Assembly: GCA_040285855.1 (NCBI GenBank)
Contig: JAUFOQ010000005.1
Coordinates: 1,860,001-1,924,000 of the forward strand
Origin: Eukaryota sp. GEM-RC1
Lineage: Eukaryota
Length of the DNA: 64,000 nt
Direction of reading: 5' to 3'
Part shown: piece after piece, positions 2,152 through 64,000 of the stretch
How the letters are laid out: each line of letters opens with the position of its first letter
Numbering within the stretch: the first letter of the stretch is position 1
Program-made: the position numbers and the translations under genes
The notes under the pieces: generated by a model
The model's database searches: none
What the model was told of the DNA's origin: nothing
Seen by the model: the letters and a program-made list of their open reading frames with translations, nothing else

Positions 2152-2175
2152 TGTGACTGAGTAAGAGTCAGAAGT

Positions 2176-3604: not shown

Positions 3605-3741
3605 TTCAGGGCAAGCGATTCCCTCGGGGTGGGGTTGGCCAAAAATACAAGAATATGAGTTCGTAAGAGCCTTTAGTTGATCAGCGAGGTCAGTTGGTAG
3701 TTCTGTGCGGCAAAGTGACAGTTCTTCACTGGAAAGTGAGT

Positions 3742-4176: not shown

Positions 4177-4468
4177 GTTATTATCTTTGAACTCTAGCTT
4201 GGCTTAGCTTTCCAAGAGGAAATCGTTGGAGGGAAGACAAGAAGGAACAGAAGAAGATGTTGTTCGACCTATTACTGAAAAAGAATTGGCATCACCACCA
4301 TCTATGCTTGCAGCAACTACCTCACGTCCCGTTCCCCACACTCGTCGCCCGAAGCAATAGGCGTCACCGTGTACCAGTACCTTGCCAGCGGTCGAATTAA
4401 CTCGACCACGAAGCGCAGAACTGTTTAATGTACCGGGAGCCCTCCTACGCGGAACCGTGACTTAAGAG

Positions 4469-5462
4469 CAGGGTTCTGTAATATTGAATTGCCAATTCAA
4501 TATTGCCAATAAATATGGACCAATATTGATTGGTTGCCGAAAAACCAATACCAATATATTGCCAATATTGATCAATATGGATGTTTGGGTATTTTGTCTC
4601 AAACATCTATGGGACAATGTATACGAGTGTCTGTAAGCTGTACATTAATTGAACTTCTTAGTACATATGAGCCAACCACTTACGTTATGAGAAAATCTGT
4701 CAATCCAATAGAAGAATTATATAGTTCAAACTTAACTTACTCTTACTATCTTTATGACGGACAATAAAACAATCTGTCTCACCTTTTATTCCCTTACATC
4801 CAAGAATTTGAGTCCGGTATCTTGAAAGTAATTGATGGAACCGAAAGTTTATTTACTACTCAAGAAAAGAACTATCTTCAGAAGTTTGAAATGGGGGAAA
4901 GTCCTGTCATTTTGTTTCCAGAACCAGAAAGTCAGGAAGGAGAGAAAGGAACGCTTTCTGAACGAGCCTCTCAATTATCACAGACCAGAAGAACTGCCAA
5001 TAGAAAATATCAAGATTTGACTTGGATTCCAGCCACTTCTGTGGAGGTTGAGAGACTTTTTCCAAAGTCAAACTTGCAGTTGGAATGACTCGCTTTTCTT
5101 TATCCAATAGCAGATTGAAAGCTCAACTTAGGTTGCATTACAACAGAAGTCTTTGGAATGTTGGAACTGTTCGTAAAGCTTGTTGAATACGATTAATCAA
5201 TGTTAATCTACAGAAGTCTTTAGTTTTTTTTTCTGGATTAGTATGTATTATATTATAATTATTGTTGCAAGTACACTCTTCATTGGTTTTACAGTAGTAG
5301 TTTATTGTTTTATGCATTTTAGAAGTAGATCTTGATAAAGCTACTTCATATACTAGGTTTAACTATATTGGCAATATTGGCAATATATTGGTCGATACCA
5401 ATATTGATTGGAAGGTCAAAAACCAATACCAATATATTGCAATACAATATTACAGAGCCCTG
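4469..5462 (+). mobile_element. Non-autonomous hAT element nested in the LTR element
   Basis: TIRs CAGGG(T/C)TCTGTAATATTG; perfect 8-bp TSD CTTAAGAG (4461-4468, 5463-5470); CAATAT subterminal repeats; hAT dimerisation remnant YQDLTWIPATSVEVERLF (4822-5088). Confidence 0.93.
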
Positions 5463-5463
5463 C

Positions 5464-6417
5464 TTAAGAGGAGTTAACTGCAGGCAAGAGGAGATCAGCT
5501 TCTTCTGGAGAGATAGATGAATTGACTTCAACACTGGATTCAGACAGAGAGACGGTGAAAGTGTTGGAGTTTGGCAAGGGTGAGTGAAGGAACTGACAGG
5601 GTTCAAAGTCGAACGAAATAGATGTCTCATCATCTGAAGAGTCGGGTAAAGGAGCAGATTCAACCACAAAGTTCGTTTGTTTACTACTACGAGTAGCATG
5701 ACTCTTTGAGAAAGTAGGGTTGCGGGGATTGTAGGTCTTGATTGTTGGTTTCCAGGGGTTTAGGGGGTTGAATATTCTGAGCAGAGACATTGGGGGAGGA
5801 AATTTGAGAAGGGTTCGCAGAGTTCTTGAAATGTTGTGATCTTCGGCATTTGGGGTCACGGCAGTACTCAATCGTGTGCCCAGGCTTCTTACAGAAGGAG
5901 CAAAATCTACCATTCTTATTGGAGGTAGCTGAAGAGTTGGGATGATGAGACCTGTTTTGGGGTTCAAAGTTTCCAGCAGGGTTGTTGTTGGTTGAGTTAT
6001 TTTGAGGATAAACTAAGTTTTTGTTGTTGGAGTAAAGTTTTAGAGTGTCAAAGAGTTCGGATGTACGAGCAATAACTTCGGAAATGGAATCAAGGGAGGA
6101 GCAATGAATTTCATCAAAGATGATGTTTTGGATAGAGCGGGGCTGAATACCACGAGCAAAATGTTCCAGAACTTTAAAGTTGCTGGGCAAAAATAAACGA
6201 CATCGAGAGAGAGTTTGTCTGAAAGCAAGGAAATACTGAGACAGGCGGAGATTTGGATTGTTTAGAGTGGAATCCATGGAGAGTGAACGTAGTAATGAGC
6301 GAGCTTCAGTAGCGTTTTGACATAAGGTCTTGTCAATAAGAAAGTCCCATAGGTCGGGTTGGGAAGAAAGAGAATGAGGTGAGAGAATGCGGATAAGGTC
6401 TCAAACTTCATTGGAGA
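5464..6417 (-). CDS. gag C-terminal part with CCHC zinc knuckle
   Basis: ORF 5687-6277 contains CSFCKKPGHTIEYC; lies between the two nested insertions. Confidence 0.8.
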
Positions 6418-10300: not shown

Positions 10301-10422
10301 TAGAGGAGTGTTAGGTATTTGTTAGGGGTTTGATTCCTGTACCAAGTTGATGTAGCTTGAGAATAATGTATATCTCAACATGAAGATATGGAAATATTCA
10401 TATTCTCATTTATCCATCATCA

Positions 10423-12383
10423 ATGGTCACACCTCGCCCTAAATCTCTGCTGAAAGAAAGTCTTTCATCCTCCAGTTTCGCCCCTTTTGTGATTTCTAAC
10501 TGTGACGCACTGTCTGTATTGTCTTCATCCACACATCCTCCTTTTAAACCTGTCCATGTTCAGCAGACTTTGTTGATTCTTATTCATCTCCACTTGTTGA
10601 AACGTCTTCTTAACCGTACTTTCGAAGATAATCATGATCGAACTAATCCTCTACTCACTGCTTTGAAAAGAGGTATACCTGCATTCTTTGGACAAGTTGG
10701 CTATGTAAGTAATCACTTCCTTGATTCTTCATTACAAGCAGTTAAAGTCTATTTTCAACTACACACTTCTCCTGCTGATCTTGAACACCTTCCCAAACTA
10801 ATTTCACTTGCTGCTTTCTTTGGAGCAGATCTACAATCTGTTTTCTTGCACGCTGATGGAACCTTAGAAATTGAGAAATTTCTTAATTATTCTAGTATAA
10901 TTGCAGGATTGAGAATCAAAATAAGGGAACCCTCTGATTTAGAGTTTCTAAACAATTCTTCTTCTTTATTTCCACGTCTGAAGCAGCTAGAAGTAGAAGT
11001 GATCGAACGCACCTCTATTTCTATGTTATTGATTGAAGCGTTGAAACCCAATACTTTAGTTACAAGTGTTAATCTGGGGGCAACTCTATTGGAGCTGAAG
11101 GTGCCAAAGCTTTGGCTGAGGCGTTGAAAGTTAATGCTTCACTTACAATTGTTAATCTGGGTAACAACTCTCTTGGAAATGAAGGTGCCAAAGCTTTGGC
11201 TGGGGCGTTGAAAGTTAACTCTACAGTTACAAGTGTTGGTCTAAGTGATAACTATATTGGAGCTGACGGTGCCAGAGCTTTGGAAGGTGCGTTGAAAGTT
11301 AAGTCTTCAGTTACAAGTATTGATCTAAGTTTCAACTCTATTGGAGCTGAAGGTGCCAGAGCATTGGCAGAGGCCTTGAAAGTGAACGCTTCAGTTACAA
11401 GTATTAATCTGTGTCAAAACTCTATTGGAGCTGAAGGTGCAGAAGCTTTGGCAGATGCGTTGAAAGTGAATGCTTCAGTTGCAAGTGTTAATCTGTGTCT
11501 AAACTCTATTGGAGCTGAAGGTGCAGAAGCTTTGGCAGAGGCGTTGAAAGTGAATGATTCAGTTGCAAGTTTTGCTCTCAGTTGGAACTCTATTAGAGAT
11601 GAAGGTGCCAGAGCTTTGGCAGATGCGTTGAAAGTTAATACTTCAGTTACAAGTGTTTATCTGTGTCAAAACTCTATTGAAGCTGACGGTGGCAGAGCTT
11701 TGGCAGAGGCGTTGCAAGGCAATGCTTCAGTTACAAGTATTAATCTAAGTGAAAACTCTGTCGGAGCTGACGGTGCCAGAGCATTTGCAGAGTCCTTGAA
11801 AGTTAATGCTTCAGTTACAAGTATTAATCTAAGTGACAACTCTCTTGGAGCTGAAGGTGCCAGATCATTTGCAGAGGCTTTGAAAGTTAATACTTCAATT
11901 ACAAGTATTAATCTAAGTGACAACTCTCTTGGAGCTGAAGGTGCCAGAGCATTTGCAGAGGCTTTGAAAGTTAATACTTCAATTACAAATGTTGGTCTGG
12001 GTGGAAACTCTATTCGAGATGAAGGTGTCAGATCTTTGGCGGAGGCGCTAAAAGTTAATACTTCAATTACAAATGTTGGTCTAGGTGGAAACTCTATTCG
12101 AGATGAAGGTGTCAGATCTTTGGCGGAGGCGCTGAAAGTTAATACTTCAGTTACAAGTGTTAATCTGAAGTGCAACTCCATTGGAGCTGAAGGTGCCAGG
12201 GCATTTGCAGAGGCTTTGAAAGTTAATGCTTCAATTACAAATGTTGGTCTAGGTGGAAACTCTATTGGAACTGAAGGTGTCAGAGCTTTGGCACAATTGT
12301 TGCAAGCTAATGATTTAGTTAACATTTTCAATTACGACCTTAATTTAGATGATTTGGGGTATATTTCTGAAGATGATGAATAA
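10423..12383 (+). CDS. LRR family gene A: conserved N-terminal domain plus about 15 RI-like 28-aa LRRs; one frameshift in a G run near 11076-11080
   Basis: 84-bp repeats encoding SIG.EGARALAEALKVN.SVTS..L..N; N-terminal domain shared with five paralogs in the window. Confidence 0.88.
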
Positions 12384-19283: not shown

Positions 19284-21459
19284 CAGGGCTCTTCAATAAA
19301 TAATTGCAATATATTGTGAAAATTTTTGTTGCTGCAATACTGTATTGCAATAACTGGTTTAGTTGCAATACTGTATTGCAATAATTGGTACATTTGCAAT
19401 ACTGTACTGCAATATTTTTTAACAAATTTGCTGCTTAAGTGCTACATTTATGTTTCAATAAATTCGACATGCATACCATTATATCAATCTATTGATTACA
19501 AATCTAGTTTTCGATCAACAATCATTTTGGCTACCAATTGCATATCCCAATGATGTCTATTGATGGACAAAAACACTTGAGTTTCGAGACGTTCTTGACT
19601 CAAAGAATGACGATTCAATCCTTGAATAAATCGGACACGACTAAAAAGTCTTTCAACGACGTTAGATGTAGGAGGAATCCAGGAAAGATCTTGATAAGTT
19701 GAACCTTCTTCGATTGTTTTCTGACTGAAAACGTCTTTTATGGAGGCAAGGCGTCTCTCGCCTGCTCTTGGCTCAGCATTTGGGTGTTCAATGAAACACT
19801 GGACCCATTTCTTTTCATCTTCTGTTAAACATTCGCCTCTACGAAGCAGTTTGAGAACTGCCGTTTCAAAGTGAACCTGGTTTTCAGGATATCTGGCACG
19901 TAAAGAGGCAGGATATGTCAGGTGTTCCTTGAGCTCTGGATTTTCGTTTTCTTGACAGTATACATCAATAGTGGAAGCAAACAATCTTTGTACACTTAGC
20001 ATATCAATATCCTCTCGTTGGAGTTGTAAACTCACAAATGCAAGATTTTCAAGATCATTCAATGCTTGTAGAAGAACTGGTTCCTCAAAAGAGGATGGCA
20101 AATATTGCAACAATTCTTGATCTGCAGCTTCAACAATCATCTTGACAATGGAATCCTTCAGTTCTATATAGCGTCTAACCATTGCTTCAGTCGAGTGCCA
20201 TCTAGTGACATTCCGCTTTTTGGGCTTTAATTTCGTGAAACCGTTTAGAACAGTTGCCCTTTTTGGTTCAGAAAGCAGTTTCATAATAGTGTTGATTTTT
20301 CTGAAGACAGTGTCTAAATGAGAAGTGAACTGCCGTACTCCTAACTGAAACCGATGAGAAGCGCAGCCTACAAATCCACACGAAATTCTGGTGGCTACGG
20401 CTTTCATTGTCGGACAATTGTCTGCTACGATACAAGCAACCATTGCCAGGATTTGTTGAACATTGCAAGAGAATGTTCAATCAAGTTTATCACTGCATCT
20501 GTGCCAAACATTCTATCGAAGACAGTGGAGCCAGCTTCAGCCTCAAAGGGCAACAGTGATAGAAAGACAGGGGATGAGAGAGAACGATTCATGGCAAAGA
20601 TTCCGAGATAATGAAGATTTGTGGACGGACTTTTCCAAGCATCGATAATGAGCGCAAAGCATGACCCAAGTAGAGATTCCAACTGATGATACATATGTTC
20701 CTTAAGGCAGTCAAAGAGGTCGACAAACGTGTTGAAACAGATAGGTTGGAGATTGGTGTAGCAACGAGTAACTTCAGATTCAACAACTGAAAAGGGTAGG
20801 CCTTCACTAACCCAGTCCAACCAAGAATAGTAACGCTTCGTTTTGCATGGAATAAAGATCCTTGAGATATCTTGATTTGAGTCCGCTTCTCTAAGCAATT
20901 GCCATGTTTCCGTTCTCCAATCAACATGTTCTGATACAACATGGGATGAGAGATTCGACCAGCCACTGTTCGGCTTTCTAGTACGAAAAACACCACATCT
21001 ACATTTCCATACTTCAACATCATCTCGATCTCTTACTGGTGATTTGCTGAGAAAGTTTTGAACCTCAGCTGTTTCAGTATCGAGTTCGATAAAATATGCC
21101 CTCGATCGTTGTGCCGGAGTTGGTTCAGAATTTGTTTCTTTTACTCGCAGGGTCATACAAAGAGAAATTTAGCTGACAAAATTCGTCTCTTCAAGATAAT
21201 CATCTTACTGTTGTTTTATAAACTGATATTCACAACACCAGCTAATTTTTTAATATATGCTTTAAGTACACCACACTACTAAAATGACAATAAAACGGTT
21301 TCGGCAATTGGCTGAGTATTGCTTACAATAACTGCAATAACGAAACAACATGCAATATCGTACTGCAATATTCGAACCAGTTGCAATACTGTATTGCAAT
21401 ACTGCAATACAGTGTTATTGCAATAATTGCAAAATGCAATTATTTTTTGAAGAGCCCTG
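19284..21459 (-). mobile_element. hAT DNA transposon, full-length type
   Basis: TIRs CAGGGCTCTTCAA(T/A)AAATAATTGCA; perfect 8-bp TSD CTTGCAAT (19276-19283, 21460-21467); TTGCAATAC subterminal repeats. Confidence 0.95.
19496..21156 (-). CDS. hAT transposase (BED-like finger, DDE core, dimerisation domain); one frameshift near 20440
   Basis: CRCG...NLSSHVVSEH; IIDAW; VADN; CASH; NVTRWHS; WIPPTSNVVERLFS. Confidence 0.92.
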
Positions 21460-23475: not shown

Positions 23476-26400
23476 TTTATTCGGCACCCAATAAGGTAAC
23501 CTTCTTACAAACTATGAAATTGTAAAAACAAACAAATAATACTAAGATTAAATCCAAACGACTTCATCACCACCCGGTAAAAGATTAAGTTTATCAACAT
23601 TAACCTTCACACCAAACTTGTACAATTTCTCAAGTAATCTAGAGAAATAGAAAGGCATATTCCGATATATGGAAAACACAATACGGTTTTTCCATTCAGC
23701 CATTCTAAACTTACGCTTCTTTTCTTTACACAATTCTTCGCAATCCTTGAAAAATTGATCACCAACAGGACTAATAGATCCAAAAAGAGAAACAGCAAAA
23801 GGTTGAAACACAAATATGGAATATGAGTTTCTATTTAATTCTTCAACTTGAAGATCATACTTGGAGTGTTTGAGCTTTTCAGCAGCTGTTAACGGGTTAA
23901 AAGAAGAATCTAATATCCTACTAACACAAGATTTGTTACATACATCTACTGTAGTAAAATCCATTAATGATTGACTCGATTTAAGCCACGGAGTATGTAG
24001 ATCCCCTCTTTTTTGATCAGTGAATTCATTTTCTGAAAGATGATTCAAAACTGGTTCAACTTTAGAGTGAAACCCATGTGCTTTAAACATGGAATAACAA
24101 GAATCACGTACACCATCATGAATTACTGCACGTAGACGAATAAAATAACGACAATTAATTAAATGACGAAAAACACCATTAGCTCCACAAGAGCAAGTTG
24201 AATAGTTTAATAAATTGGAATTTGCAGGCCAAATAGCCAAACGAAGACGCATATTGATCATCCAAGCTTCATCAGATAGATGTAATCCATACACCTTTTG
24301 GAATTTGAGAAATAAATCCAGAAGGTCCACTATTACAAAGATCAATTAAAAAAGCAGCGAACTCGGGACTATTAGTTTTAGCCAAGCTAATACGATTATT
24401 AAAGTCCAAGAGTTCAAACTCTTTGGCAATTAATTTTATAGCTTACATACAGTAGACGGTAGAGATGAAATATTTTTTAAAGGAACCTCCTTCAAATGAG
24501 CAGGGAACAAAGATTCCCACATTTCAGGAGACAAGGATGATACCAAATCTTTAGCAGATTGAATCCAACGGCAATTACTGGAATTCAACAGATTGATTCC
24601 ATCCAAGGGAAACCGTTTCAAAAATTCAAACATAAAATTCTTAACACCTCCTAAAAGAGCAGATTTTCTAATGATTTTTGCATGGGTGAAACCTACTCCT
24701 GCGAATTCAGAAGAATTAAAAGCATGAAATGGAATCTTAGACTCATCAATTTCAGCCAAGTTAGAGAGATAATTTGTTCTAATAGAATTAAATTTCTTGG
24801 CAAATGTTTCCAGTGAGGGAATAGTCTAATGAACGTAAAAAATGATTAATTTTCCCGGAAAAACAGACCTGAAGCATAGCAAAGGCAACATGTTTACTCA
24901 CATCTAAAGATAATATTTGATTTAGTTTTTCTTCAATTGTAGTTAATGAACCCTCCAATTCTGAATGAATTTTCTCATAATTTCCCAAAAATGTGCCAAG
25001 GAAACGAAAACATTGAGTAGAATAATCGATGATAGGAATATTACGAAAACCAAGATTAGAAACATTCGAAGACTTAACAACAAGAAAACACTTATCAAAA
25101 TTGATTGTTAAACCAATACTCAAAGAAAGTTCAATGAAACGTGAAAAACACTTTTTGAGAACGTCAACTGGAGCGATCAGCGAAGAATCATCAGCATAAG
25201 CACAAATTTTAACAGTTGGAAATTCTAATTGTAAGATTTTAAATAATTTTTGCAGAGCGAGACAAAACAAAAAGGACCCAAAGGATCACCTTGCTTAACC
25301 CCTATAGTTGATTTAATATCAAACTTGTCAAAAATTAAATTCGACGCTTTCCCATAAAAAAGGTTAAAACAAGGAATCAACTGAGGAAAAAATTTAGAAA
25401 GTTCGTCAGATATAGTTGATCTTAAAACACAATTAAATGCATTTTTAAAATCAATGTTCAAAATAGCATTTTCCTCATTTGAATGAAAAAGAAAATCAGA
25501 GGTTAAAGCAGCACACGTAGTACCATCAGGAACTCCAACTGCAAATTGAAACGGTCTAAAGAATTCAACAGAGGAATCTCTGACTCTCCTAAAGCACAAA
25601 GTTGAAAAAATACGAGAAATTGTTTCACCCACTGCAATTGGTCTCACACCTCCATTTGGTTTGCTTAAAGCCACTAATCTAGAAGAGCAAAGAGCATGAG
25701 GTAATTTCTTTGTGCCTAATAAAACTTCATTAAAGAAAACAGCAAGATCTTCACAAATTTCAGGAACAGCATTAACGGCAATTTTAAAATGATCAAAACT
25801 CATACCAGAAGGACCAGCAGCACGACCAGAAGGGGATGACGAAATTAATTGTAAAATTTCATCAACTAAAACAGGTTTGTTAGTCCAGTACGACATGGAA
25901 AGTTCACCAAAAACCGGATTACTTCAACAGGGTGTAATTTTTTCAGTTTTTCAACAGTTTCAACAGAAACTTCAGCTGGAAGTGTGTGATTAAGGGAGGA
26001 CAAAGCAGAAGAAAACTGACCTCGTAAAACAAGATTTTGAAATCTTTTAGCAATAAACTTATCACTAACTTGAGACTTAAGAACAGGTTTAATTTTTCTA
26101 TTGGACTTCTTAACAATTGACAACATATATCGCCAAAAGGTGCGGGATTCCAAATTCCACCACGTAAAATTTGTGTCACACTTCTAAGAGCAGTCCCGAC
26201 ATTAACGGCCGCCATTGGAGATATCATGATAGGAATTCTAAATTGTGGACGACATACATCAATAGGTGAACAATCAAAACACACAAGAAGTGGACGATTG
26301 GATTTATTTTTCCCAGAAACAGATTTAGCACAAAAAGACAGGTCAATGAAATTGATGAATTAATTTTAGGCTCACAAACAGTCTCTTGGAAATCAAGAAC

Positions 26401-27264
26401 AAACTGTTTAGACTCCACGGACAAAACAACTTCAGTAATCTTGGCATCATCTGAAGCAGACTTCATAGTAGGGCAGTTACGCCTATCATGACCACCCAGT
26501 TTGCACACACCACACTTTCTACTAGACTCATGCATCGATTCGGCAACAACTGGCCGAGAAATACAAGTATTATCTGACGATGTAAGACCAACCAAAGGAA
26601 TACAAGCAGAAAAATTCGGAGCAATTGCCTCATTCAAAACATTCTGAACTAATGGACTTATAGAGAAGGAAGATTTAACAGAAAAAATAGCTGTACTTCC
26701 ATCAAAAACAGAAGATACAACCTTAGAAGGAGGAGAAATAGAACGAAGAGAAGAAGATTGATTGGATGAAGAAAAAGCAGCAGCACTTCCATCAAAAACA
26801 GAAGATACAACCTTAGAAGGAGGAGAAATAGAACGAAGAGAAGAAGATTGATTGGATGAAGAAAAAGAAGAAAAAGACGGGTTTCGAGCTAAGTATTTAA
26901 GAGAAGAGACAGAAGAACTTCCATTAAAGACAGAAGAAACAGCTTTAAGAGGAGAAGAAGCGGAACGAACCGAAGAAGGTTGGTTGGAGGCAAAGACTGA
27001 AGAATGAGATGACTTACGAACTAAACAATTTGAAAGCCGAGCATACCCCCGAACAGGAGCAGCAAGAGGAGGAGTAGTTATAGAGGAAGAAGAAGTACCG
27101 GCAAGTTTTTTAGCCAGATGATATGGTAATTTGGACTTACCCTTCACAACACCAGAGTCAGAAGGCTCACGAGTAGAAGAGAAAGACTGCCAGACAATCT
27201 GGCAGATTTTCTTAAAGACATGAAGGCAAAAAAAAATGCAGAGATATAAACTTTGAAATTGCAA
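23476..27264 (-). mobile_element. CRE-clade-like non-LTR retrotransposon (zinc knuckle, RT, restriction-like endonuclease), near full length, frameshifted
   Basis: CGVCKLGGHDRRNC; AAGPSG, KPNGGVRPIAVGE, IDFKNAFN, GVKQGDPLGP, YADD; CSCG..HLINC..HDGVRD..RGDL; no APE domain seen; 3' end at a conserved TTATTGGGTGCCGAATAAA motif. Confidence 0.88.
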
Positions 27265-27583
27265 ATGTAATTTAGTAATGTATTTTCTATTGTTTGTTCC
27301 ACAGTATATTTGAATTAAACAAAGTTTTTAGAATCAAATAATTGAGTTCTACTGACCTCACTTTGTGTGGATTTTATGAAATCCTTCGCCCTGATTATTG
27401 TTTTTTTTCTGTATTAAAAACTAGTTTAGGCAAATTTAGGTGCCAAACAAAGGGGTTCCAAATTTATTCACAATGACACGTATTTGTTCAGGTTTGAAAA
27501 ATAGAAGTGTGCTGCAAGTTCACGATCTCAGCAGAGTTCCACTCAAATTTGGAGAATAATTCATGGATATTATCATTCCACAC

Positions 27584-30292: not shown

Positions 30293-32222
30293 GAACAGAA
30301 GTGAAAACTATGAACATCTTTACTAACACAGGTCATTGCCATGTTGGTTTTAAGAGTGAGGAATTATCCAAACTCTCTAGTCACTACAGTAGAAGAACAG
30401 TATTGTCAATCAATTCTTAACATCCACCATGAAATATTCTTGTATATTACCTAAAACCTATAAACAAACCTATCAACAAACTGATAAACTGTGAAGTTCA
30501 AAACAGTTGCCAGTATATGACATAATTGGGTAGCTTGGATATTATGTTGCAGAATGCCCACATTGGCATTTCACATTATGTGAAAGGTTATCATGCCGTA
30601 TATGACCGTAAACGCGGCTTTAATGACCAAGAGTTATCATCAAGAAAAGGACCGTAAACCTGATAAATTTAAGCAATTATACATGAAGCAGAGCTATTAG
30701 AAACATCCATTAAATTTGTGCAAAAGTGCGATTTCCTTCCTTGGCCATGCCAAGTCGAACATTATAATCCAAGTTTTGAAAAATATTTGTTAGTTTTTGT
30801 TGTAATTTTGTCAAACAAAACTGAAGATCAGTCAAACATCTTTCAGGTATTTCAGACACAGATTCTGGGAAACATTGAGAGTCTCAATTTGAGACCAAAC
30901 GTCAAAAGGTAATTTGATCAACGCATTGTGTAATTCAGATAAATATGTACACGACTTGGGGTTAATAAGTGGAAGATCTATATGAAATCGATTAAGAAAT
31001 TCAAAAATCAAAATTTTTCCGTCTCCTAAAAAGCAGATTTGCAGAAAATGGACGATTTGGTAAAATCAATACCACCAAAATGAGCAGAAGTAAACAAGTG
31101 ACTTCCAAGTAGCGTTAAGTGAATTTTGTACATCGACACAAAAATATCAGTCCTCAACTCGTTAAAACATCAACAAAAATTGAGAGTGATCGCAGGAGCT
31201 GTGGATTATGACATATTGTCTGTTTATTGGTGTTTTCTGATGTTCCAATTAATAAACATTTATTTTGTTGACCAAATAGCACATTTCAATATAATCGTTT
31301 GTTGATCATTGGGAAGAAATACAAATTTTTATTAATCGTAGCAAAGTCAATGGAAATCAATCCAAAGCTATTGTACGTTTGTTGGCTTTCTGTGTTTTAA
31401 TCGTCTCAATGTCATGATCTTACCACCAGCTCGACCCTGTTTGATCCAGTTTCAAATCGGTTGTACCCAGTATTCAATCAAAAGAAATGGACTAGGAGTC
31501 AGAGACGTTATACCAACAAAAAGTCGTAACAAAATTATTTAAGCTGTGTGACAAGTTATCAATTTGCTATCAGATGTTTCAAATAGACTAATTTGCGGTA
31601 CTATGGTGGTAATCTAATCGTTTCCTTCTTATCAAGTAGTGGTGGATCCAACTACAGCTGGCTGATTTGCATAAGACTACAATGATTCATTTTGTATTCA
31701 AATGATCATCTTGAAAGGGTTGAACACCGCAAGTGTTTCAATTACGTATATAACTTGAAGACAGTTCAGGAAATGTTATATTTCAAGTTGAATTTTAATT
31801 TGAATTATAGTTTAAACGTCTTAATCAATGAATATGTATTTACTTTGTTCCCGACTTAAACATTTGCATATGTTCCTAAGTAACACGACTTCCATTTATT
31901 CTACCTTCTAGTATTGTAATCACAATTTTTAATACAATTCCTGGAATGATTTGGAAAGCTTCTTTAGCTCTTAATGTTTTCCCTGAAGAAAAATCTTCTG
32001 TGACTTTCACTGTCATTGAATGTTGCTTTAATGATATTCAGTTCTACTCTGCCAGTATCTGTTCAGTATAATCGATGCAGTAATTTTTTCAAATTTGTTA
32101 GTGTTTATGTGTAAATTTTTGACAAGTGAATGTTGATCAAGAACAAAACAAGTTCTAGAAAAGACTCTTCTGTTCTTCATTGAAGATTTCATGAAACCTC
32201 ACGTACATTAAAACTTTTAGCA

Positions 32223-33087
32223 TTGTCTTCAACCACACATCCTCCCTCTGAACGTATCCGTGTTCAGCAGACTTTGCTGATTCTTGTCCATCTTAACTTG
32301 CTGAGACGTCTTCTCAAGCTTACTCTCGAAAATATTGATGATCGAACTAATCCTCAACTTGATGCTTTGATAACAGTTATACCTGTATTCTTTGGACAAG
32401 TTGGCTATGTAAGTAATCACTTCCTTGATTCTTCATTCCAAGCAGTTAAAGTGTATTTTCAATTACACACCTTTCATGCTGATCTTGAACACCTTCCCAC
32501 AGTAATTTCACTTGCTTCTTTCTTTGGAGCAGATCTACCATCTGTTTTCTTGCACACTGATTTCACCTTTGCAATTGAGAAAAGTCTAAATTATTCTGGT
32601 CTAATTACTGGATTGAGAATCAAAATAAGGGGATCCTCTGATTTAGAGTTTCTAAAAAAATCTTGTTATTAATTTCCACGTCTTAAGCAGCTAGAAGTAT
32701 CAGTGTTCCAACGCACCTCTGTTTCTATGTTATTGATTGAAGCGTTGAAAACCAATACTACAGTTACAAGTGTTAACTTGGGATACAACTCTATTGGAGA
32801 TGAAGGTGCCAGAGCTTTGGCAGAGGTGTTGAAAGTTAATGCTTCTGTTACAAATATTGATATACGAAGAAACTCTATTGGAGTTGAAGGTGCCAAAGCT
32901 TTGGCAGAGGTGTTGAAAGTTAATGCTTCTGTTACAAGTGTTGATCTAGGTGGAAACTCCATTGGAGATGAAGGTGCCAGAGGTTTGGCACAATTGTTGC
33001 AAAATGTTGATTTAGTTAACATTTTCAATTACGCCTTCTAGCCTTAATTTAGATGATTTGGGGTATATTTCTGAAGATGATGAATAA
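32223..33087 (+). pseudogene. LRR family gene D (5'-truncated, frameshifted, 3 LRRs, same C-terminal cap as gene A)
   Basis: ORFs 32223-32672 and 32703-33041; tail DDLGYISEDDE* as in gene A. Confidence 0.85.
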
Positions 33088-36850: not shown

Positions 36851-38144
36851 ATGTCCATCCCATCAGATCTTCCTGTAAATATCATTCAACTACCTTATGC
36901 AAAAGACATATCTTCTCTTGAAGCGGACATAGCTGAGCTTACTAAAGCTGTCAAAGCTAAAACTGGCATCAAAGAAACCGATACTGGGCTGTCCGCTCCA
37001 GCTAATTGGGATCTTCTCCATGACAAAAAACTTCTACAACAGGAACAACCTCTCGCTGTTGCTCGCGTTCTCAAAGAACTTCCTCCTGACGATCCCGAAG
37101 CGATGGAGATTCCTGCTCTCGCTAAACCCTCAGAGAAGAAGTACATCATCTCAATGCGTCAGATCGCCAAGTTTGTCGTTGGTCTCGGTAAAAACGTTGC
37201 TTCAGTGGATATAAAAGAAGGAGAACGTGTGGGTGTAGACCGACAGAAACACTCGATCCAACTCCCCCTTCCCCCCTCGTATTGATCCCACCGTCTCAGC
37301 CATGACTGTTGAGGACAAACCCGATGTTACCTATGAAGATGTTGGTGGAGTTACCGATCAAGTCAAACAACTCAGAGAAGTGATCGAGCTACCCCTCCTA
37401 CACCCAGAACGTTTTGTTGCTCTCGGAATTGATCCCCCTAAAGGTGTTTTGCTTTATGGACCGCCAGGAACTGGTATGTGCGCATTCTAGGTATTAACTC
37501 AAGGTAAAACTCTCATTGCCCGTGCTGTTGCTAATAGAACTGAAGCTTGCTTTATCAGAGTAATAGGATCTGAATTAGTACAACGTTATGTTGGTGAAGG
37601 TGCAAGAATGGTACGAGAGCTGTTCAAACTGGCCAGAACCAGGAAAAGTTGTATTATCTTCTTCGACGAAGTTGATGCCTTTGGTGGTACTCGATTCGAT
37701 GCAGGTGAATTCGGTGACAACGAAGTCCAGCGAACAATGCTTGAGTTAGTAAACCAATTGGATGGGTTTGAGTCTCGAGGTAACATCAAGGTTATCATGG
37801 CTACAAACAGACCAGATACACTAGACCCCGCTCTAACTAGACCAGGACGTTTAGATAGGAAGGTGGAGTTTGGACTTCCAGATCTAGCAGGAAGAGCTCA
37901 CATCTTCAAAATCCACACTAGAGCGATGTCTACAGTCAAAGGGGTTCGTTTTGAGCTCTTAGCCAGGCTTTGTCCGAATGCTACGGGGGCTGAGATTAGA
38001 GCTGTTACTACAGAAGCGGGAATGTTCGCTATAAGGGAGAGGAGGAAGACCGTAGAAGAGAAAGATTTCCTGGCTGCAATCAATAAGGTCATTAAGGCTC
38101 AATCACAGTTTTCAGCAACTGCAAGGTATATGAGTTATAACTAA
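36851..38144 (+). CDS. RPT1: 26S proteasome regulatory ATPase RPT1/PSMC2; 30-nt intron at 37474-37503; apparent +1 homopolymer frameshift near 37271-37276
   Basis: [30 protein letters not shown]^GKT (Walker A restored by splicing), [17 protein letters not shown]-terminus ARYMSYN. Confidence 0.96.
37474..37503 (+). other. 30-nt spliceosomal intron
   Basis: GTATGTGCGCATTCTAGGTATTAACTCAAG; contains an in-frame TAG; removal gives [17 protein letters not shown]. Confidence 0.93.
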
Positions 38145-53751: not shown

Positions 53752-53906
53752 TAGTAGTAGACTGCACAAACAATTAATTAACATCACAAATCTCTTTGTG
53801 TCTTGGAAATCCATTGCTCCCAACATAACAATAAACATACTTATGTATATTAGACAATAGAAGAAATAAAAACCCTTTACACATAAACAATACTCTGTCA
53901 AACAAC

Positions 53907-54760
53907 TTAGTTCAAAAGATAGTCAACAACTAGCTCAAACTCTCTATTTACAAATTGCTTAGAGAGTGATACGGCAGCAACGTGACGGTGATCTCTGGGA
54001 GCATCAATTTCGGATCCAGCGGTGAACATCTTGTCATACAACCCATAGAAAGAGATTTGTTCGTCACCGTGACTATAAATAGCAACATAGTGGAAGGCGC
54101 TCTTATCGACTTTTGCCTGTTTAGAGAACTTGGTATTGGCCTTGATGGAATCAGGGAAGAAGGACTCACAATGAGAAACACCATCGCATTCAACTCCTTC
54201 GAGCTTGAGGGTCTTGTTAGCAAGATTGTGGATAGAGAGATCTATGGAAACCTTCATGTCGGCGTTCCAAGGACCATCGCGTGGAAGATCAACATGCTTT
54301 GGGGTCAAGAAACTAGGTCTATCACCGAAAACGGTATCAACAAGCCCGTAACTGAAGTGAGAGTTGAATGAACGATATACCCAAATGAAGGAAGAGTTAG
54401 AAGACAAGATACATGGACTCCGGAAAAACCTTGAGCGGAAAATGAAATGGATCCATTAGTATCTTTGTGCATGTCGGTAACAAGAGCTACATCACAACCT
54501 TGAGGACATAGGGGGAAATCAGTGACCTTGTAATGAAGAACCATTTGGAAGTCGTTTCTTGCTTCAACACCAAATCTATAAGGTGTTTCGGGGCGCATAA
54601 TATTGTCTGGACGAGGATTAAACACAGCAAAGGGGCTGAGACGTTGAGACGTAAGAACCATTCGGCCTATACGAGAAGTGAACTCACCTGCGTACTGAGT
54701 ATAGAAATGATCACCTAATACTGCTGAAAGCGTGACGAGGAATAACAAGAAAAGTCGCAT
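53907..54760 (-). CDS. Putative secreted protein of unknown function (two overlapping ORFs, probably one frameshifted gene)
   Basis: Signal peptide MRLFLLFLVTLSAVLG; ORFs 54305-54760 and 53907-54407 overlap near an A/T run; partial copy at 60369-60697. Confidence 0.65.
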
Positions 54761-54921: not shown

Positions 54922-55203
54922 TTACATGCAGACTTTCTTGCTCACACTTCTAAGAGGAGCTATACGAACTTTAGCACTACAGTCTTCTGTTGATCCTGTT
55001 CCGTTCTCTTTTGTCTTCTGTTGATCAACAGTTTTTCTGTTCATCGGACAGTTCCTTTTGTCATGACCTGTCTCATGACACATTGAACACTCTCTCAAAA
55101 TCTTTGAAATCATCTTCTTTTCTTTCTTCTTCTTAGAACATGATCTAGAATTGTGACCGACTTCGCCGCAGTTTGTGCATTTTCTTTTCTTCTTAATCGC
55201 CAT
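54922..55203 (-). CDS. Two CCHC zinc knuckles, probably the C-terminal extension of the Fanzor
   Basis: CTNCGEVGHNSRSC and CSMCHETGHDKRNC; overlaps the Fanzor 3' end; adding one A in the A6 run (plus-strand T run 55231-55236) joins the frames. Confidence 0.7.
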   Translation of the reverse strand: MAIKKKRKCTNCGEVGHNSRSCSKKKKEKKMISKILRECSMCHETGHDKRNCPMNRKTVDQQKTKENGTGSTEDCSAKVRIAPLRSVSKKVCM

Positions 55204-57774
55204 TCCGTTCTCGAATTCATTTGTTTGAGATTTTTTCTCTCAAGAACGGAAGGTCTACTTCTACCTTGGATTGCTGCTTCAATAATACTGTGAATGTTGA
55301 TACCAGAGTTAAAGTCTCTGTTCCAGTATGTTTCACACGTGGCGCATCGCGTTAAACCCCATGGTGAAACCTTTGCTTCCTGGAGTTTGCTTTTTAATCC
55401 ATCTTTTTCTTTTTCCCATTCATATTTAAAGTTTCTCTGATCTTTACCCAACAGTAATTTTTGTTTGTACTCAACAACCTCTTTCTGAAGTTTCTTCTTT
55501 TTACGATTTAACTTAATTTTCCAATTAGGGTCTCGGACTTTATCATCTTTTAGGTTCGAGCAAAAGCCTTCTGTTCCAAGCAATGTGCAACTCGAACAGC
55601 ATTTGCTAGTTCGATACTCATCGACTAGAAAAACTTGGTATCCGAATTTTCGGAAAAGTTTCCTCATAGATTTGCCTTTTACAAATGATCGTTTTCCAGT
55701 TCGTTTGGCTTTTCTAGAATCAATCCAATCACCAAAACCAATAATTACTTCTCCTGGTGACCCGAACTTTTGAGCAAAACGATGAAGCATATTTTGATGA
55801 CTCCTCTGATTGTTCGAGTACCTCTTCAGTCTCTGGCGTCGGAAAAACTTTTTCTTCTTAAAATGTGCCTATCAGAGCCCCATAAGCTTCTGTTTCTGTT
55901 AGATACAAACTGTACTTATCTACAAAGTACTTCTATTCTTTTGGTTACCCCAAAGTTTAGGTTACCCCGCAGAAGTGGTTGCGGGGTAACCAAAATGACG
56001 TAACCAAAAGGGTACTTACTTATCTGAGGTAACCGAATTTACCTTGCCAGAGGATACTCTGGAGCTGAAATTATCAGCAATTTCCTTGCCAGTCATGTGA
56101 CGACCATTTACTGTGGTTGTGAATTTCAGAAGCTTTGAGGTTTCATCGTCAGGCTCTCTGACTTGCTCATTTGGTTGCTTGTTCTTTTTCTTTTTCTTGA
56201 TAAATCTGCCTCTCTGGTCAGCAGTTCGTTCACCAGCTGTGTACCGGAATGTTTTCCAGCTGTGGCTTTTTTTCAATTTAACTTTGGTTATTTCTTTTTG
56301 TCTCTGCTTTGAGTCTTTTCTTCTCTTTTTTGAGTCTCTTCTTCTCTTTTTGTATCCCCCCTTTCTTTTTGCAATTAATTTGTGAAAGTTGTTTAGATCG
56401 AGTCTTATTTGACAGGTCAAATCCCTCTTGAATTTTTTTCGCTCTCAGTTTTCGGACTAACACAAAAGATTAAATCGTGTTGGTTAGGATCAATTGCTAC
56501 GATTTTTTTTGCCTGTGAGATTTAATTTAGTAATTTCTTCCGTTGTCAGAGAGTCCACATAGCGTTCTTCTTCAGCCAAGTCATTTGCTGAAAGATTTTT
56601 TCTAGGATTTCCATGAGAGTCCAACAAATCCTTTCTTGTCATGAGCAGGGAAGTATAAACACCATCCGTTGTAATAGAGGTAAAAGCAAAGTCATAAGAT
56701 AGGGAAGTTGGAACTGATTTTGGTTTAAGAACAGTATTCCATAATTCCTTCCTTATTGTATCCATTTCTCCCTTGAGATCTGATAAGAATCTTAATTGAA
56801 ACCAGTTAGAGTCCAGTCTCACGTGACCAGGAATTAGTGATGACGTCACTGGAAAGGGATTGGTGACGGAGACATTATCACAGAATTCCTCAATCAGTCT
56901 GTTCAGATAGATTGCATGTGAAAGGAACTTAAGAGGGTTTACTTTTTGAGCATAGTATAATCCCTTTGGCATTTTCTTGTTTAATTGACATGTCAAGTAA
57001 GTCCTAAAAGCAATAGTTAACCTAGAATTGGTGGGAAAAATAGTTTGATCCTGAAAATCAATTAAATCAATTTGTCCGTTGACAATCAACTCTCGGATGC
57101 TGTTAAGCCGCTGATAAAAAAGTTTTCGTTCATCTTCACACTCAATTTTCATGGCTCTAGATTTTTTCTCCGTTACTAAGTTGAAGACTCGAAAGACATA
57201 GGAGTGAAAGTGTTTTGCCATATTATTCTTGTAACTGGTGGAGATCTCAGTGGCCATGTAATCAAGTAGTCTGGGTAAGTACAAGTTACTTGGGAATTTT
57301 ACCATTTGCTTACCAGCAACTATAGCAGCAGCGTTCAAAAGAGGAAGGAACTTAGTGAGTAGATGATCAATAAGTCGAATTTTAAGCAGAATCAAAGAAT
57401 TGGATTTTTTTGCGACCTTTTCAAGTCTTCTTGGCGTTCAAGGACAATCTGGCTCAAATGGTCAGATGAACCGTTTTTTTTGTTCGTCATCAAAGATAAC
57501 AAAACCTTCAAGGTTTCTGATCCAGAATTTCCGAGTAATTTGGCAAATTACAATGTGTTCCCATAGAATCTTTAAATTTCAAATATTCACAGTCAAATTC
57601 GTGAATCAAAAAATGTTTTAGGAAGTGAGTTCCTCGAACTCTAAAGTGGTGACTTCTTTTCACACACGATTCGATAACTTTGATTTTTGATTTTGTCACA
57701 ACTTTGGTGAGTCTTCTTTTAATCACCTTCATTGGAGATTTTTCTCTGATTTTCTGCTTGTTTCCATCAAACAA
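55110..57774 (-). pseudogene. Fanzor1 (TnpB-derived RNA-guided RuvC endonuclease), frameshifted and MITE-interrupted
   Basis: ITTDGVYTSLL; RuvC-I KIVAIDPNQHDLIFC (about 56460-56505, outside the ORF track frame); FRRQRLKRYSNNQRS; IGFGDW; VDEYRTSKCCSSC; RCATCETYWNRDFNSGINI...RPSVL. Confidence 0.9.
55922..56016. mobile_element. 95-bp foldback MITE inserted in the Fanzor ORF
   Basis: 9-bp duplication TACTTATCT (55913-55921, 56017-56025); nested inverted repeats CTTTTGGTTAC/GTAACCAAAAG and GGTTACCCCGCA/TGCGGGGTAACC; removal restores VTSDK-YSLYLTETE. Confidence 0.85.
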
Positions 57775-57775
57775 G

Positions 57776-58820
57776 TCACAAGCAATGAATTAACAGATGC
57801 AGGCGATCAATTGCATTTTGCAGTAAACGGGGTCTTGTTGATGAAGCCTTCCAAAGGTCATTGATTGTGTTTAGTTCACTAGAAGTTTTTAACCTAAACA
57901 ATTGCTTTGCAGATAGTGCAGAAACATTATTTTCCGCTTTGAAATTAGCGATAGCTTCATCAATATAATACAGAGGATTGGTTAGAATTCGTATTAATTC
58001 GGAATTTTTCCAATTTTTTGATCATATTCCAACATAATTTGAGTTACGTCTTCCAATAAGCGACCACCTTTAAATTTGTACAAGGATTTAAAAACTGAGT
58101 TTAAATCCAGGCAGTGAAATGGACCAAAAGAGGATGTTTTGCACCATCTCTTAAACCATGTGGGTACATGTGGAGTATATCCGTTAAATTGAAAATTAAC
58201 ATCAATCATCAAATGGTTGCATCTTGAAATCAAAAATGGAAAAGTGAACTTGTGACAGTTATATCCAATCAAAAGCAGTGGACGCACAGCTTTGAGGAAT
58301 TCAATCAGATTAACCAGCATCAATGTTTCTGAACTAAATCCATTGATAGAACAATCTTGAATATATAGTTCATGGCAACCCCAAGTAAAGAGATAAGTGT
58401 CGCCTTGACACCCAAGAGACGAGCAAAATTCCATTGATACAGATACAATGGAATCGTTACTTCCATCATAGGAAAACTCGTGTGTTAGGTCTTTCACTTG
58501 TGGCCCTTGACAGTCTTCATCATCACTGTCATGTTCCTCAGCGACCTCTGGATTGAGGCGATGGTCTTCAGAGATAATAGCTCTGATTTCCATAAAGCAA
58601 AATAATTTATCCAATGTCTGGATGTTTTGTGCTTTCAATGGAGTTGGAGATAGTTCCATTGAAAGGCGTTTCACACCTCTCGTTGGATGAGGAGAAACAG
58701 GACCTCTAGCGCAGTTCACTGACGGAAAGGGATTCATGAAACCAAGAATAGTCGGTGTCGGTAATGTGATTGATTTGTTCTTACTTTCCCCTCCATTGGA
58801 TTCCGTTTCGTGATTTATAG
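57776..58820 (-). CDS. Family-B DNA polymerase 3'-5' exonuclease-like domain, catalytic acids apparently lost
   Basis: SETLMLVNLIEFLKAVRPLLLIGYNCHKFTFPFLISRC (ExoII GYN...FD.PYL..R pattern with D to T); HCLDL...LEDV; a shifted frame continues to INDLWKASSTRPRLLQNAIDRLHLL (ExoIII position), ending near 57776. Confidence 0.65.
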
Positions 58821-60368
58821 TTCAATTTGATTTTGGAATGCAGTTTGTTTTCCTTGACACTAATACTACAGTAAAACTTCTTCTAGTTCTTACACCCCTT
58901 TTCTTCTTGTTTTCTTCTTGTTATACCTTGTTGTACCTTGACTGTCTTTATAACTTTGTGTACTTTCAAGGACATTCTTGAAGCATCTGTCATAAATAAG
59001 CCACCTGCTGATGACTGAAACTACTATTAATGTCTACCAAACACTTCTTAATCAAGTTGAAGATCTTCTCAATTCACTTGTACATATCTTCTCAAAATTA
59101 ACAACCCTGGACATTCGTCACTCTCGCTGCTTTCCATAAAATACAGACCAAAATTCCGTAATGTTCCTCCTGACTTATCCTTCCGTTTCTTCTTCTTAGT
59201 TCCTGTAGCTTCTCTTCATGTAGCTTATGTTTGAATCTCTTTCTCCCTCCGTGTTCACATCTCTTTCTCTCCTGTAATATATATCGTATAAAACACAGTG
59301 ATAAGGTCTTTTTATTTCGAATCGTCCATAAACACTAAGCTAGAGGCATCTGATGTTCTGGTGGTGGTGCAAATTTTTGAACACCACTCTTCCCGGGTTT
59401 TACGGGAAGAGATCGAATATCTTCGTGTGAAAGAAGAAGATCCCAAGTCAAACCCATTGCGATGTATAAGAAATCTTCAGGAACGGAAGAGAAGGCGAGG
59501 GAGATGAGGGAAGATGTTAGGTCCAAAATTGTAAAGGTCTGAAATGCGGATCAGACCGAGATTACAAACCTCAATACATTTAATTATAGTTTATTAGTCT
59601 ATTTTGATAAACGATGAGCACATGTTGGCGTACTGTACCTTCTTCTTAAGACAAATTAAATGTTGTTGATGTGGTGTCTGTGGATGTTTGCAAAAAAACA
59701 TCCTTAAAGAATGATGACTCTGAAACGTCTCCTGTAGGCATTTTTGAACAAGCCAAACAGGAGAAGCAAAATAAAACCATTGATGGATCTAAAACATGTG
59801 AACTATGTCGAATATGAGTTAAGTCTTTCTGATGTATTAATCTATGCCGTTGATGTTGTGTGTGTCGATCGTTGCAAAAGGACAACTTCAACTTTAAAGA
59901 ATGGATTTTTTGCAACAGTACATTTCGCAAATTTCAGAACAAACAAAGTTTGATAAATGCAAAATATGATAAATTGTTCTACTGTTTTGAAAACCATCAA
60001 CCCAACGTCGCCAATGCATTACTAGTAATTAATTCTATGCATGACGACAAAGCTATGGCAAGATTTGATAGTGATTGGTTATGATCAACTATTAGTTTCA
60101 ATAGCTAATTACATTCATAAGTACTACAGTTGAAGATGCAAAGCGACCTTTGAAAGGATTTAATTCAAAAAGACAAGAAATTAATATTGCAGTTTTAGCT
60201 CTGACCAAGACTTTCTTAGGTGTGGGATACTCCAAAAGACATGTTAAGGTGCCTAAGTGTATTCCTTCTGTATTAATTGTGTTTGTATATCATGACCACT
60301 ATTAAAGAAAAAGTTCTAAGCCAACTGTTGAGTTGTTTAAAACCATTTACAAATTACAGTACTAGTAG

Positions 60369-60697
60369 CATGAACAATGCTCTGTCAATTTGACAGTGTC
60401 AAACAACTTAGTTCAAAAGATAGTCAACAACAAGCTCATAATCTCTATTTACTAATTGCTTAGAGAGTGATACGGCAGCAACGTGGTGATGATCTCTGGG
60501 AGCATCAATTTCGGATCCAGCGGTGAACATGTAGTCATGCAAGTTATCTGACAACCCATAGAAAGAGACTTGTTCATCACCGTGACTATAAATAGCAACA
60601 TAGTGGAAGGAACTCTTGTCGACTATAGCCTGGTTGGAAAACTTGGAATTGGACTTGACGGAATCAGGGAAGATGGACTGACAGTGAGAAACACCAT
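60369..60697 (-). pseudogene. Diverged duplicate of the 3' part of the secreted-protein gene (53882-54185)
   Basis: Direct repeat: TGTCAAACAACTTAGTTCAAAAGATAGTCAACAAC ... GAGAAACACCAT. Confidence 0.9.
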
Positions 60698-63033: not shown

Positions 63034-64000
63034 TTATGTAGCGTGTGTCGGTTCTTTTTCTCAATTTTCACATCATTACTGATGTCTCAAGCTAAGTTAC
63101 AAGCCCCCAAGTTTGATCATCTACAAATTTTATACATACCGTCTTGGTAGGAATGTAAACTTAAAAAAGAGTCCAAGTGTGCTTGTATTGTTTACTTTCT
63201 ATTTGTCACAATTGACGCTAATAAACAATGGTTTTGGAGATATAACGAACAGTAGTGGTGTAATCTGTCAATCCCACCTTAGGACTGAACTATGATCCCA
63301 AAAACTCTCCTATTGCTGAAGGTGTGCTACTCATAAATTTGGTTTAAAATAGTTAAAAAGCTCTTTGCCAATATAATTGAAACAATAAAAATTGTAAATT
63401 ATTTAGAAAAACATTTTGTAGTTTTTATTATTTATACTGTAATAGATCAAACAAATAATATTTGATATCATTAAAACAACACCCGTCGCTATCAAATCTG
63501 ACAACAGCAGCTTTGTACCCATTAAAGGAACTCACTGCTAAAAAAGCTTTGGAGATGATTAGGGGAACTGTTTTTAAAACAGTAAAAACGATTTGATTCA
63601 ACCATAACGTTGAATAAAACGTTTGTGCATTCTATTTTTAAATCTTTTCCGAAATCGTTAAATCAATTCAATGTACTTCTTCCTTAATGTGAGTAAATTT
63701 AAACAGCAAAAGGGCATAATTCGTATTCAACATTTTTTACACGTTTTAGATCCATCAATGTTTTCTTGTACTTATCTTGTTTAGTTTGTCCAAAGATGAC
63801 TAAATGAGAAGTTTCCGAGTGAGCCTTCTTTAAAGACGTCTTTTCACAAGCATCCACTGCTTCTACATCAACAACAAATAATTTGTCTGAAGAAGAAGGG
63901 ACAACAGCGTCTGCCCCCGTTTACCAAAAAAGTTGGTTATGTTTTTGGACATTACATTTGTAACATGAATCTAAAGATCTTGGAAGTGGCTCAACAAATG

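Follow-up and report, generated by a model that had tools for sequence, protein, structure and literature searches.

A Fanzor1 gene of Skoliomonas joined to a PolB-type exonuclease domain

Introduction

In the genome assembly of Eukaryota sp. GEM-RC1, a Skoliomonas (GCA_040285855.1, contig JAUFOQ010000005.1), a stretch of 64,000 nucleotides (positions 1,860,001 to 1,924,000, hereafter the window) contains on its minus strand, from 58737 to 54922, an exonuclease-like open reading frame (ORF), the pieces of a Fanzor and an ORF encoding CCHC knuckles, in that order. This locus raises two questions: are these modules the remains of a single gene, and if so, what would an RNA-guided nuclease do with a PolB-type exonuclease attached to it? 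A sequence-only reading of the window, which had correctly placed a PolB exonuclease-like region, a Fanzor and two knuckles on one strand, proposed an ancestral exonuclease-Fanzor-knuckle protein of ~1200 amino acids (aa). That proposal is borne out by an uninterrupted junction in three of four sister copies, a full-length exonuclease-Fanzor protein in a second species, and in-frame knuckles in paralogues. We favor, with a probability of roughly 0.55, the reading that this is a multi-copy Skoliomonas gene whose single protein of ~1,235 aa would couple an RNA-guided cut to subsequent trimming of a 3′ end for copy-back.

Results

The exonuclease and Fanzor are read as one chain in sister copies

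The annotation of Skoliomonas sp. GEM-RC1 includes sister copies that are 95–99% identical to the window gene. The first ORF falls in a 90% cluster that comprises five proteins from five contigs; four of them are named, all from Eukaryota sp. GEM-RC1. Other fragments of the family, from the middle and the C-terminus of the protein, have locus tags that lie far off, which suggests that the family occupies about nine loci. Other GEM-RC1 families are 44–57% identical, one of them with 26 members (15 among the matches listed).

Three of the four sister gene models (P0004, P0005 and P0007) continue from the exonuclease into the N-terminus of the Fanzor, reading ...DQKNWKN... and ...IDRLHLLKFIACD...MKVIKRRL through both breaks of the window copy; the fourth breaks earlier, at the window's own A-run, and passes into the third frame. 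The window DNA that spans the 377-aa models comprises 1,128 bases, and restoring three missing bases gives 1,131 nt, or 377 codons; the junction therefore needs no intron. The proposed test of a continuous ORF across copies thus came out in favor of the fusion, although the boundaries in the sequence-only reading have to be moved. The stop that it took as the end of the exonuclease gene near 57776 follows a 2-nt shortfall in the A-run near 57790, across which the sisters read LHLLKFIACD, and the Fanzor-homologous part begins at ~57732 (MKVIKRRL) rather than near 57774. We conclude that the exonuclease-Fanzor fusion architecture is almost certainly real.

The window family keeps a predicted PolB exonuclease fold and has lost catalytic residues

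The exonuclease-like ORF, read from the ATG at 58737, matches Pfam PF03104 (E=3.3e-9), which answers the search for a DNA_pol_B_exo profile that had been suggested for 57776–58737. In a predicted model of P0005 (44-row alignment; predicted local distance difference test score (pLDDT) 64.6, and below 50 in leader residues 1–42; predicted TM-score (pTM) 0.66), residues 43–327 match Pol epsilon, alpha, delta and archaeal PolB at Z 17–18.6, the best match being Pol epsilon 4m8o (VIA-align Z 18.6, root-mean-square deviation 3.3 Å over 197 residues). PolB exonuclease domains overall score Z 15–18.6 against this model, compared to 13.3 or less for other DEDD enzymes, with the RNase relatives (RNase T, ERI) at Z 10–12. 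An Atlas search with P0007 residues 215–428 returned only scores under 0.9.

In all five copies of the window family the ExoI strand reads FMEIR (DxE changed to ExR) and the ExoII aspartate is replaced by threonine (YNC[DH][KN]FT); the ExoIII motif (YxxxD) could not be aligned in this family. Loss of these catalytic residues agrees with the earlier description of the exonuclease as inactive, and the window family is best described as having a domain that has lost its catalytic residues and is predicted to have kept the PolB exonuclease fold.

A second species encodes the fusion with intact motifs

A full HMMER scan with the window's C-terminal piece recovered P0014 from Skoliomonas sp. RCL, a single chain of 1,473 aa that matches both PF03104 (E=5e-13) and PF07282 and in which the exonuclease ends about 25 residues before the WED region. 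Word-based searches aimed at long relatives had not picked it up: they gave no match for the exonuclease and two ordinary Fanzors for the C-terminus. The order of exonuclease then Fanzor thus recurs in a second species, in a cluster of four members (1,473, 1,479, 1,222 and 935 aa). All three RCL models that cover the exonuclease domain (P0014, P0176 and P0178) keep FDVET, YNCDKFD and YCxxD, and a profile built from 55 natural viral PolB stretches aligns with the RCL ExoII and ExoIII motifs (E about 1e-20). Two records in public databases, KAL0225525.1 and KAL0227451.1, are candidates for intact proteins with both sets of active-site motifs; the RCL motif residues are D281/E283, D409 and YCxxD for the exonuclease and D1037, E1316 and D1414 for RuvC.

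The RCL proteins lack CCHC knuckles. Since this relative combines an intact exonuclease site with the absence of knuckles, the conserved core is the exonuclease plus the Fanzor. Between the two species the exonuclease is 29.5% identical, WED/REC 31.6% and RuvC 35.7%; because the divergence of the exonuclease about equals that of the Fanzor, the exonuclease part is, by this comparison, not decaying freely.

Two RCL models contain DVEANPGP about 170 residues before the exonuclease (P0014 residues 104–111; P0176 residues 113–120) and a third contains DVEANLGP. DVEANPGP fits the D(V/I)ExNPGP StopGo motif and is a candidate 2A-like element; such motifs are described in the available text of a recent preprint as coming mainly from viruses and retroelements (bioRxiv 2026.09.24.754024). 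No 2A-like motif was found upstream of the ORF in the window. The N-termini that precede the motif differ between the RCL gene models.

The Fanzor region has the sequence features of Fanzor1

The Fanzor C-terminal ORF (55113–55868, minus strand) matches PF07282 (E=2.3e-7), and window positions from about 57747 to 55203 align by tblastn, in several frames, with two ordinary Fanzors (P0001 and P0002). Homology to Fz1 spans WED/REC as well as RuvC. The C-terminal, RuvC-bearing part of the Fanzor has 1,087 relatives at E≤0.001, and among solved structures the best match of P0014 in the PDB is SpuFz1 (8gkh, E=6.8e-7).

The RuvC motifs and zinc-finger cysteines listed in the sequence-only reading are all present: the catalytic codons are Asp 56491–56489 (AID), Glu 55619–55617 (GDW...VDE) and Asp 55316–55314 (NRD), with a CxxC...CxxC finger. 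Translated with an X at each break, the window copy amounts to about 1,235 aa, in a numbering that is off by about one residue at three breaks. The Fanzor1 pattern D-x(125,275)-[TS][TS]-x-x-C4 finger-x(5,50)-RD (PMC3627910, available text) occurs in this read-through at Asp 750, TS 1010–1011, cysteines 1013–1017 and 1098–1101, and RD 1107–1108; the first spacer of P0014, at about 281, lies slightly above the 125–275 range. Two further markers given in the accessible parts of PMC10711439 and PMC13565253, a DP motif in RuvC-I and a RuvC-II glutamate six residues before the first CxxC, are found as AIDPN and E-YRTSKC-CSSC. The G of DPG is N in the window, as in other matches such as P0001. These motifs and alignments identify the window protein as a Fanzor1.

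CCHC knuckles follow RuvC-III in GEM-RC1

The knuckle ORF (54922–55239, minus strand) matches PF00098 (E=1.8e-4) and contains two knuckles with the CCHC pattern C-x2-C-x4-H-x4-C, at 55179–55138 and 55089–55048. Across the A-run at 55236–55231 the window reads ER followed by KKSQTNEFENG; paralogues in three families read ERPKSQT, ERPKTQTKEFENG or ERSKTQT at this junction and then continue in frame into one knuckle. Within the 26-member family a knuckle follows RuvC-III in 12 of the 15 listed models, and the remaining three either stop before RuvC-III (two) or end just before the knuckle (one). None of the 117 non-Skoliomonas matches that reach RuvC-III carries a knuckle.

Elsewhere in the window, a fragmented non-long-terminal-repeat retrotransposon-like region (23548–27327, minus strand), which we take from resemblance to be CRE-like, contains a knuckle (26520–26470) that resembles those of the Fanzor. 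This region is a possible source of the knuckle module.

The fusion is found only in Skoliomonas among the loci and proteins surveyed

The exonuclease profile matches 9 of 183 collected proteins, all of them from Skoliomonas, and P0014 is the only one of the best 150 matches to exceed 913 aa. No upstream exonuclease was seen at any of 160 Fanzor loci on viral and metagenome contigs (the best 80 of 133 and the best 80 of 351), 97 of which had 3 kb or more of upstream sequence; a separate PolB-like ORF lies about 4 kb downstream at one of them. Window pieces or an alignment, scanned directly against viral contigs, gave no match. In a quick tree built from the RuvC region with the 83 rows, out of 157 candidates, that were long enough (midpoint root, no Fanzor2 or TnpB outgroup), a branch with an SH-aLRT value of 98 separates the seven Skoliomonas rows from the others. 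Within this survey, the exonuclease-Fanzor architecture appears to be confined to Skoliomonas.

No natural exonuclease-Fanzor fusion was found in the literature, in a search that left other supplements, Repbase and subscription papers aside. The available text of PMC10711439, PMC10432273, PMC10530073, PMC11423790, PMC13565253, PMC3627910 and PMC10691335 describes none, nor do the supplementary files of PMC10530073 that were searched. PMC3627910, in the portion available, places DEDDh nucleases in P and piggyBac elements and not in Fanzors.

The window copy combines probable assembly errors with probable real lesions

Ten breaks interrupt the window copy: eight small homopolymer indels, a 104-bp insertion and one TAA. 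Five of the eight indels are confirmed as run-length changes by sister models, and two are also present in a sister model. Six of the eight lie within runs of five or more bases, against a background of 8.6%, an enrichment that is partly circular since three of the eight were assigned by hand to the nearest run. As a control for assembly indels we used the host gene for the 26S proteasome subunit Rpt1 (36851–38143, plus strand), whose frame shifts near 37271, at a C6 run. R9.4 nanopore reads with Illumina correction underlie the assembly to which the named GEM-RC1 records belong, according to the accessible text of PMC11316075. Given that frameshift and this type of assembly, assembly error is a likely cause of many of the indels. 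The Rpt1 gene also has a tiny intron of ~30 nt (GT...AG) near 37475–37504.

The 104-bp insertion forms a long hairpin (z=−6.6) and is flanked by a 9-bp direct repeat, AGATAAGTA (56025–56017 and 55921–55913). Sister model P0012 lacks it and reads the empty site as DKYSLYL; no second copy was found within the window. It resembles a miniature inverted-repeat transposable element (MITE) with a Mutator-type target duplication. P0012 also has a tyrosine at the position of the window's TAA (55860–55858). The insertion and the TAA are likely real lesions, and the window copy is likely dead. The earlier description of a degraded copy holds only in part: the other eight of the ten breaks are homopolymer length changes, many of which are probably not biological.

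Frame-keeping splicing of the insert (GT...AG, 56019–55910) was considered and rejected: P0012 has the exact empty site, and the TAA would persist. Nor is an altered genetic code needed, as host ORFs end in TAA or TGA and the sisters differ by indels.

Features of the locus and its surroundings

The Fanzor-containing interval is at most 4.9 kb long, from a dispersed repeat (59634–59844) to the next host-like gene (ATG near 54760), and contains no other recognizable gene. Its features are collected in Table 1. The Fanzor family is present in multiple copies on at least five contigs. A folding peak at 55150–55001 ranks third from the bottom among 97 windows, and no window outside the insertion scores lower; it has no relevant Rfam match. 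A second peak lies at 59560–59351 (z about −3.1 to −3.4).

Table 1. Features of the exonuclease-Fanzor locus (window coordinates)
Feature	Position	Strand	Basis or remark
Start codon (ATG) and N-terminal leader of fused ORF, low confidence	58612..58737	-	start identical in 5/5 gene models
PolB-family 3′-5′ exonuclease domain, degenerate motifs	57760..58611	-	PF03104; model residues 43–327 match PolB structures
Frameshifts in the exonuclease domain	A-run 58019–58014 and near 57790	-	
Fanzor1 WED/REC region	56507..57732	-	tblastn to P0001/P0002; 31.6% identity to P0014; sister models P0007, P0010
WED/REC frameshifts	near 57512; A-runs 57411–57405, 56510–56503	-	
Fanzor1 RuvC-I (AIDPN), RuvC-II (VDEYRTS), C4 zinc finger, RuvC-III (WNRD)	55240..56506	-	PF07282
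RuvC-region frameshifts and in-frame TAA	56439–56433 and near 55848; TAA 55860–55858	-	
Hairpin insertion, 104 bp, copy-specific, MITE-like	55913..56016	.	repeat, fold, empty site in P0012
C-terminal tail, two CCHC knuckles, stop codon	54922..55239	-	PF00098; Fanzor joined across A-run 55236–55231
Structured-RNA peak over ORF 3′ end, candidate omegaRNA scaffold (lead only)	55001..55150	-	z=−4.5

The repeat at the element's 5′ boundary has a 77% identical, inverted partner at 63694–63903. Two small-gene paralogues, 88% identical (53896–54184 and 60397–60697), flank the Fanzor element; they have a signal-peptide-like start and no Pfam match. Further away, leucine-rich-repeat (PF13516) paralogues occur on the minus strand at 19013, 29723, 40929 and 51128, a spacing of ~10–11 kb, with more copies on the plus strand near 10384–12383 and 32184–33041. 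Two other mobile-element-like regions, both identified by eye on the minus strand, do not adjoin the Fanzor: a frameshifted long-terminal-repeat-retrotransposon-like region with integrase-, reverse transcriptase- and gag-like pieces (982–6400) and a hAT-like transposase region (19496–21168).

Discussion

In the reading that we favor, the Fanzor would cut the empty site under RNA guidance. SpuFz1 cuts the non-target strand 16–17 nt from the target-adjacent motif (TAM) (PMC10432273, available text), and a 3′ end on the TAM side would thus carry ~16–20 nt of right-flank sequence that could not pair with an element-bearing donor. The tethered exonuclease may then remove this non-matching 3′ tail, after which repair would copy the element back. 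In the window family the exonuclease, if dead, would have no role beyond binding DNA ends or giving structure, and trimming would be left to host Pol delta. The knuckles would contribute binding to nucleic acid, with the omegaRNA as the most likely partner. As far as the accessible texts go, Fanzor and TnpB are thought to drive restorative homing (PMC13565253), the proofreading exonuclease of yeast Pol delta shortens an invading 3′ end by as much as ~40 nt (PMC9477423), and the exonuclease of T4 polymerase affects intron homing (PMC2988022).

Several points weigh against this scheme. An excision-homing cycle has to be assumed: no transposase, terminal inverted repeat (TIR) or target-site duplication was found in the ≤4.9-kb interval (only 10-nt chance TIR matches), in line with the sequence-only reading, which saw neither a partner transposase nor element ends. 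The window family has spread to at least five near-identical copies despite an exonuclease that is presumably dead, and the activity would therefore be dispensable there. Fusions of TREX1, TREX2 or T5 impaired the activity of MmeFz2 (PMC12923547, available text). The fused sequences, those of RCL included, are gene models throughout, and no full-length model is present among the listed members of the window family. RCL ExoI (FDVET) was placed by motif across an acidic insert of ~45 aa, which is left unaligned by the profile. Finally, 38 PolB rows in the alignment behind the P0005 model partly impose its fold, which is not independent of the Pfam result.

Among the alternatives, the one that survives best, though we consider it improbable, is that the exonuclease was captured once and kept as a scaffold or DNA-binding aid, and that its catalysis never mattered. 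The frame and predicted fold persist in the window family after loss of the catalytic residues in all five copies, most Fanzor1 proteins do without an exonuclease (as at all 160 loci surveyed), and in the accessible text of PMC12923547 an HMG-D DNA-binding fusion helped MmeFz2 where exonucleases did not. All three RCL models covering the domain, however, keep every exonuclease motif at ~70% divergence from the GEM-RC1 family, which would be unlikely without selection on catalysis in the RCL lineage.

Only slightly less improbable is a role in which the exonuclease degrades the cut ends and blocks faithful re-ligation, the resulting deletions removing excised or competing alleles. The intact RCL exonuclease site would suit such a role; target deletion alone would not raise copy number. 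The engineered analogy is loose, as T5 exonuclease is a 5′-3′ enzyme. A T5-Cas12f fusion gave longer deletions and higher editing (PMC12337685, available text), and the impaired MmeFz2 fusions point the other way.

It is less likely still, and in our view quite unlikely, that the exonuclease trims the 3′ end of a read-through omegaRNA precursor that the knuckles keep in place. Binding of single-stranded nucleic acid is common among CCHC knuckles, the DEDD-fold relatives of the domain include the RNases noted above, and the 3′ end of the ORF lies under the structured peak; however, the domain is nearer to PolB DNA exonucleases than to any RNase, and other Fanzors appear to mature their guides without an exonuclease (PMC10432273, available text). 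That gene predictors joined separate neighboring ORFs is very improbable and largely refuted: the window does have stops at both junctions, and the fused sequences are gene models with none full-length listed for the window family, but the window DNA, with 3 nt added, runs colinear with the sister junction, the order at this junction recurs in RCL, and three paralogous families share a conserved peptide where the knuckle is joined.

We regard it as a tentative proposal, less likely than not to hold, that Skoliomonas has a natural two-nuclease RNA-guided enzyme, in which the proofreading exonuclease attached to a Fanzor1 is active and prepares the cut end for homologous copy-in. If this were true, a self-spreading homing element that needs no transposase may exist (no transposase was found, and a 2A-like motif precedes the RCL protein), and the protein would offer a ready-made scaffold for biasing genome editing toward templated repair. 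For the role of Fanzors in eukaryotic elements, the exonuclease-Fanzor lineage makes the homing hypothesis directly testable: motifs that appear intact in one species and lost in a sister family form a built-in comparison. The lineage also extends the range of Fanzor1 to free-living metamonads and roughly doubles its usual size. Engineered fusions of exonucleases to compact RNA-guided nucleases have had mixed results, and the exonuclease-Fanzor is a version kept by evolution.

We compared the protein with known systems, for which we rely on the accessible portions of the papers cited. SpuFz1 of Spizellomyces punctatus (8gkh; PMC10432273, PMC3627910) shares the order of WED/REC, RuvC and zinc finger, the DP and RD motifs, the glutamate six residues before CxxC, and presence in multiple copies; Spu-1 is reported without a transposase inside the element, and none was found in the window element either. 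Most Fz1 proteins are 600–700 aa long (PMC11423790), in contrast to 1,235–1,479 aa in Skoliomonas, where WED is preceded by a whole PolB exonuclease domain and the GEM-RC1 proteins carry one or two CCHC knuckles at the C-terminus. PpFz1 is likewise a Fanzor1 with an extra domain, but its FRI domain, which binds cyclophilin, is inserted within RuvC, measures ~100 aa and is not an N-terminal enzyme domain (PMC11423790). The PolB proofreading domain (PF03104; Pol delta, epsilon, alpha, archaeal PolB and T4 gp43) is matched in predicted fold over residues 43–327 and, in RCL, by intact ExoI, ExoII and ExoIII motifs; unlike in those enzymes, no polymerase domain follows, an acidic insert comes after ExoI, and the window family has lost the catalytic residues. 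T5-CasMINI (PMC12337685) and the TREX1, TREX2 and T5 fusions of MmeFz2 (PMC12923547) similarly tether an RNA-guided cutter to an end-processing exonuclease, which helped Cas12f and impaired MmeFz2, whereas the Skoliomonas fusion is natural and its domain is of the PolB 3′-5′ type. In T4 td intron homing, with the gp43 exonuclease and DexA (PMC2988022), repair of a homing-type cut also depends on a PolB 3′-5′ exonuclease, but in that system the phage polymerase supplies the exonuclease in trans, and cutting is protein-guided.

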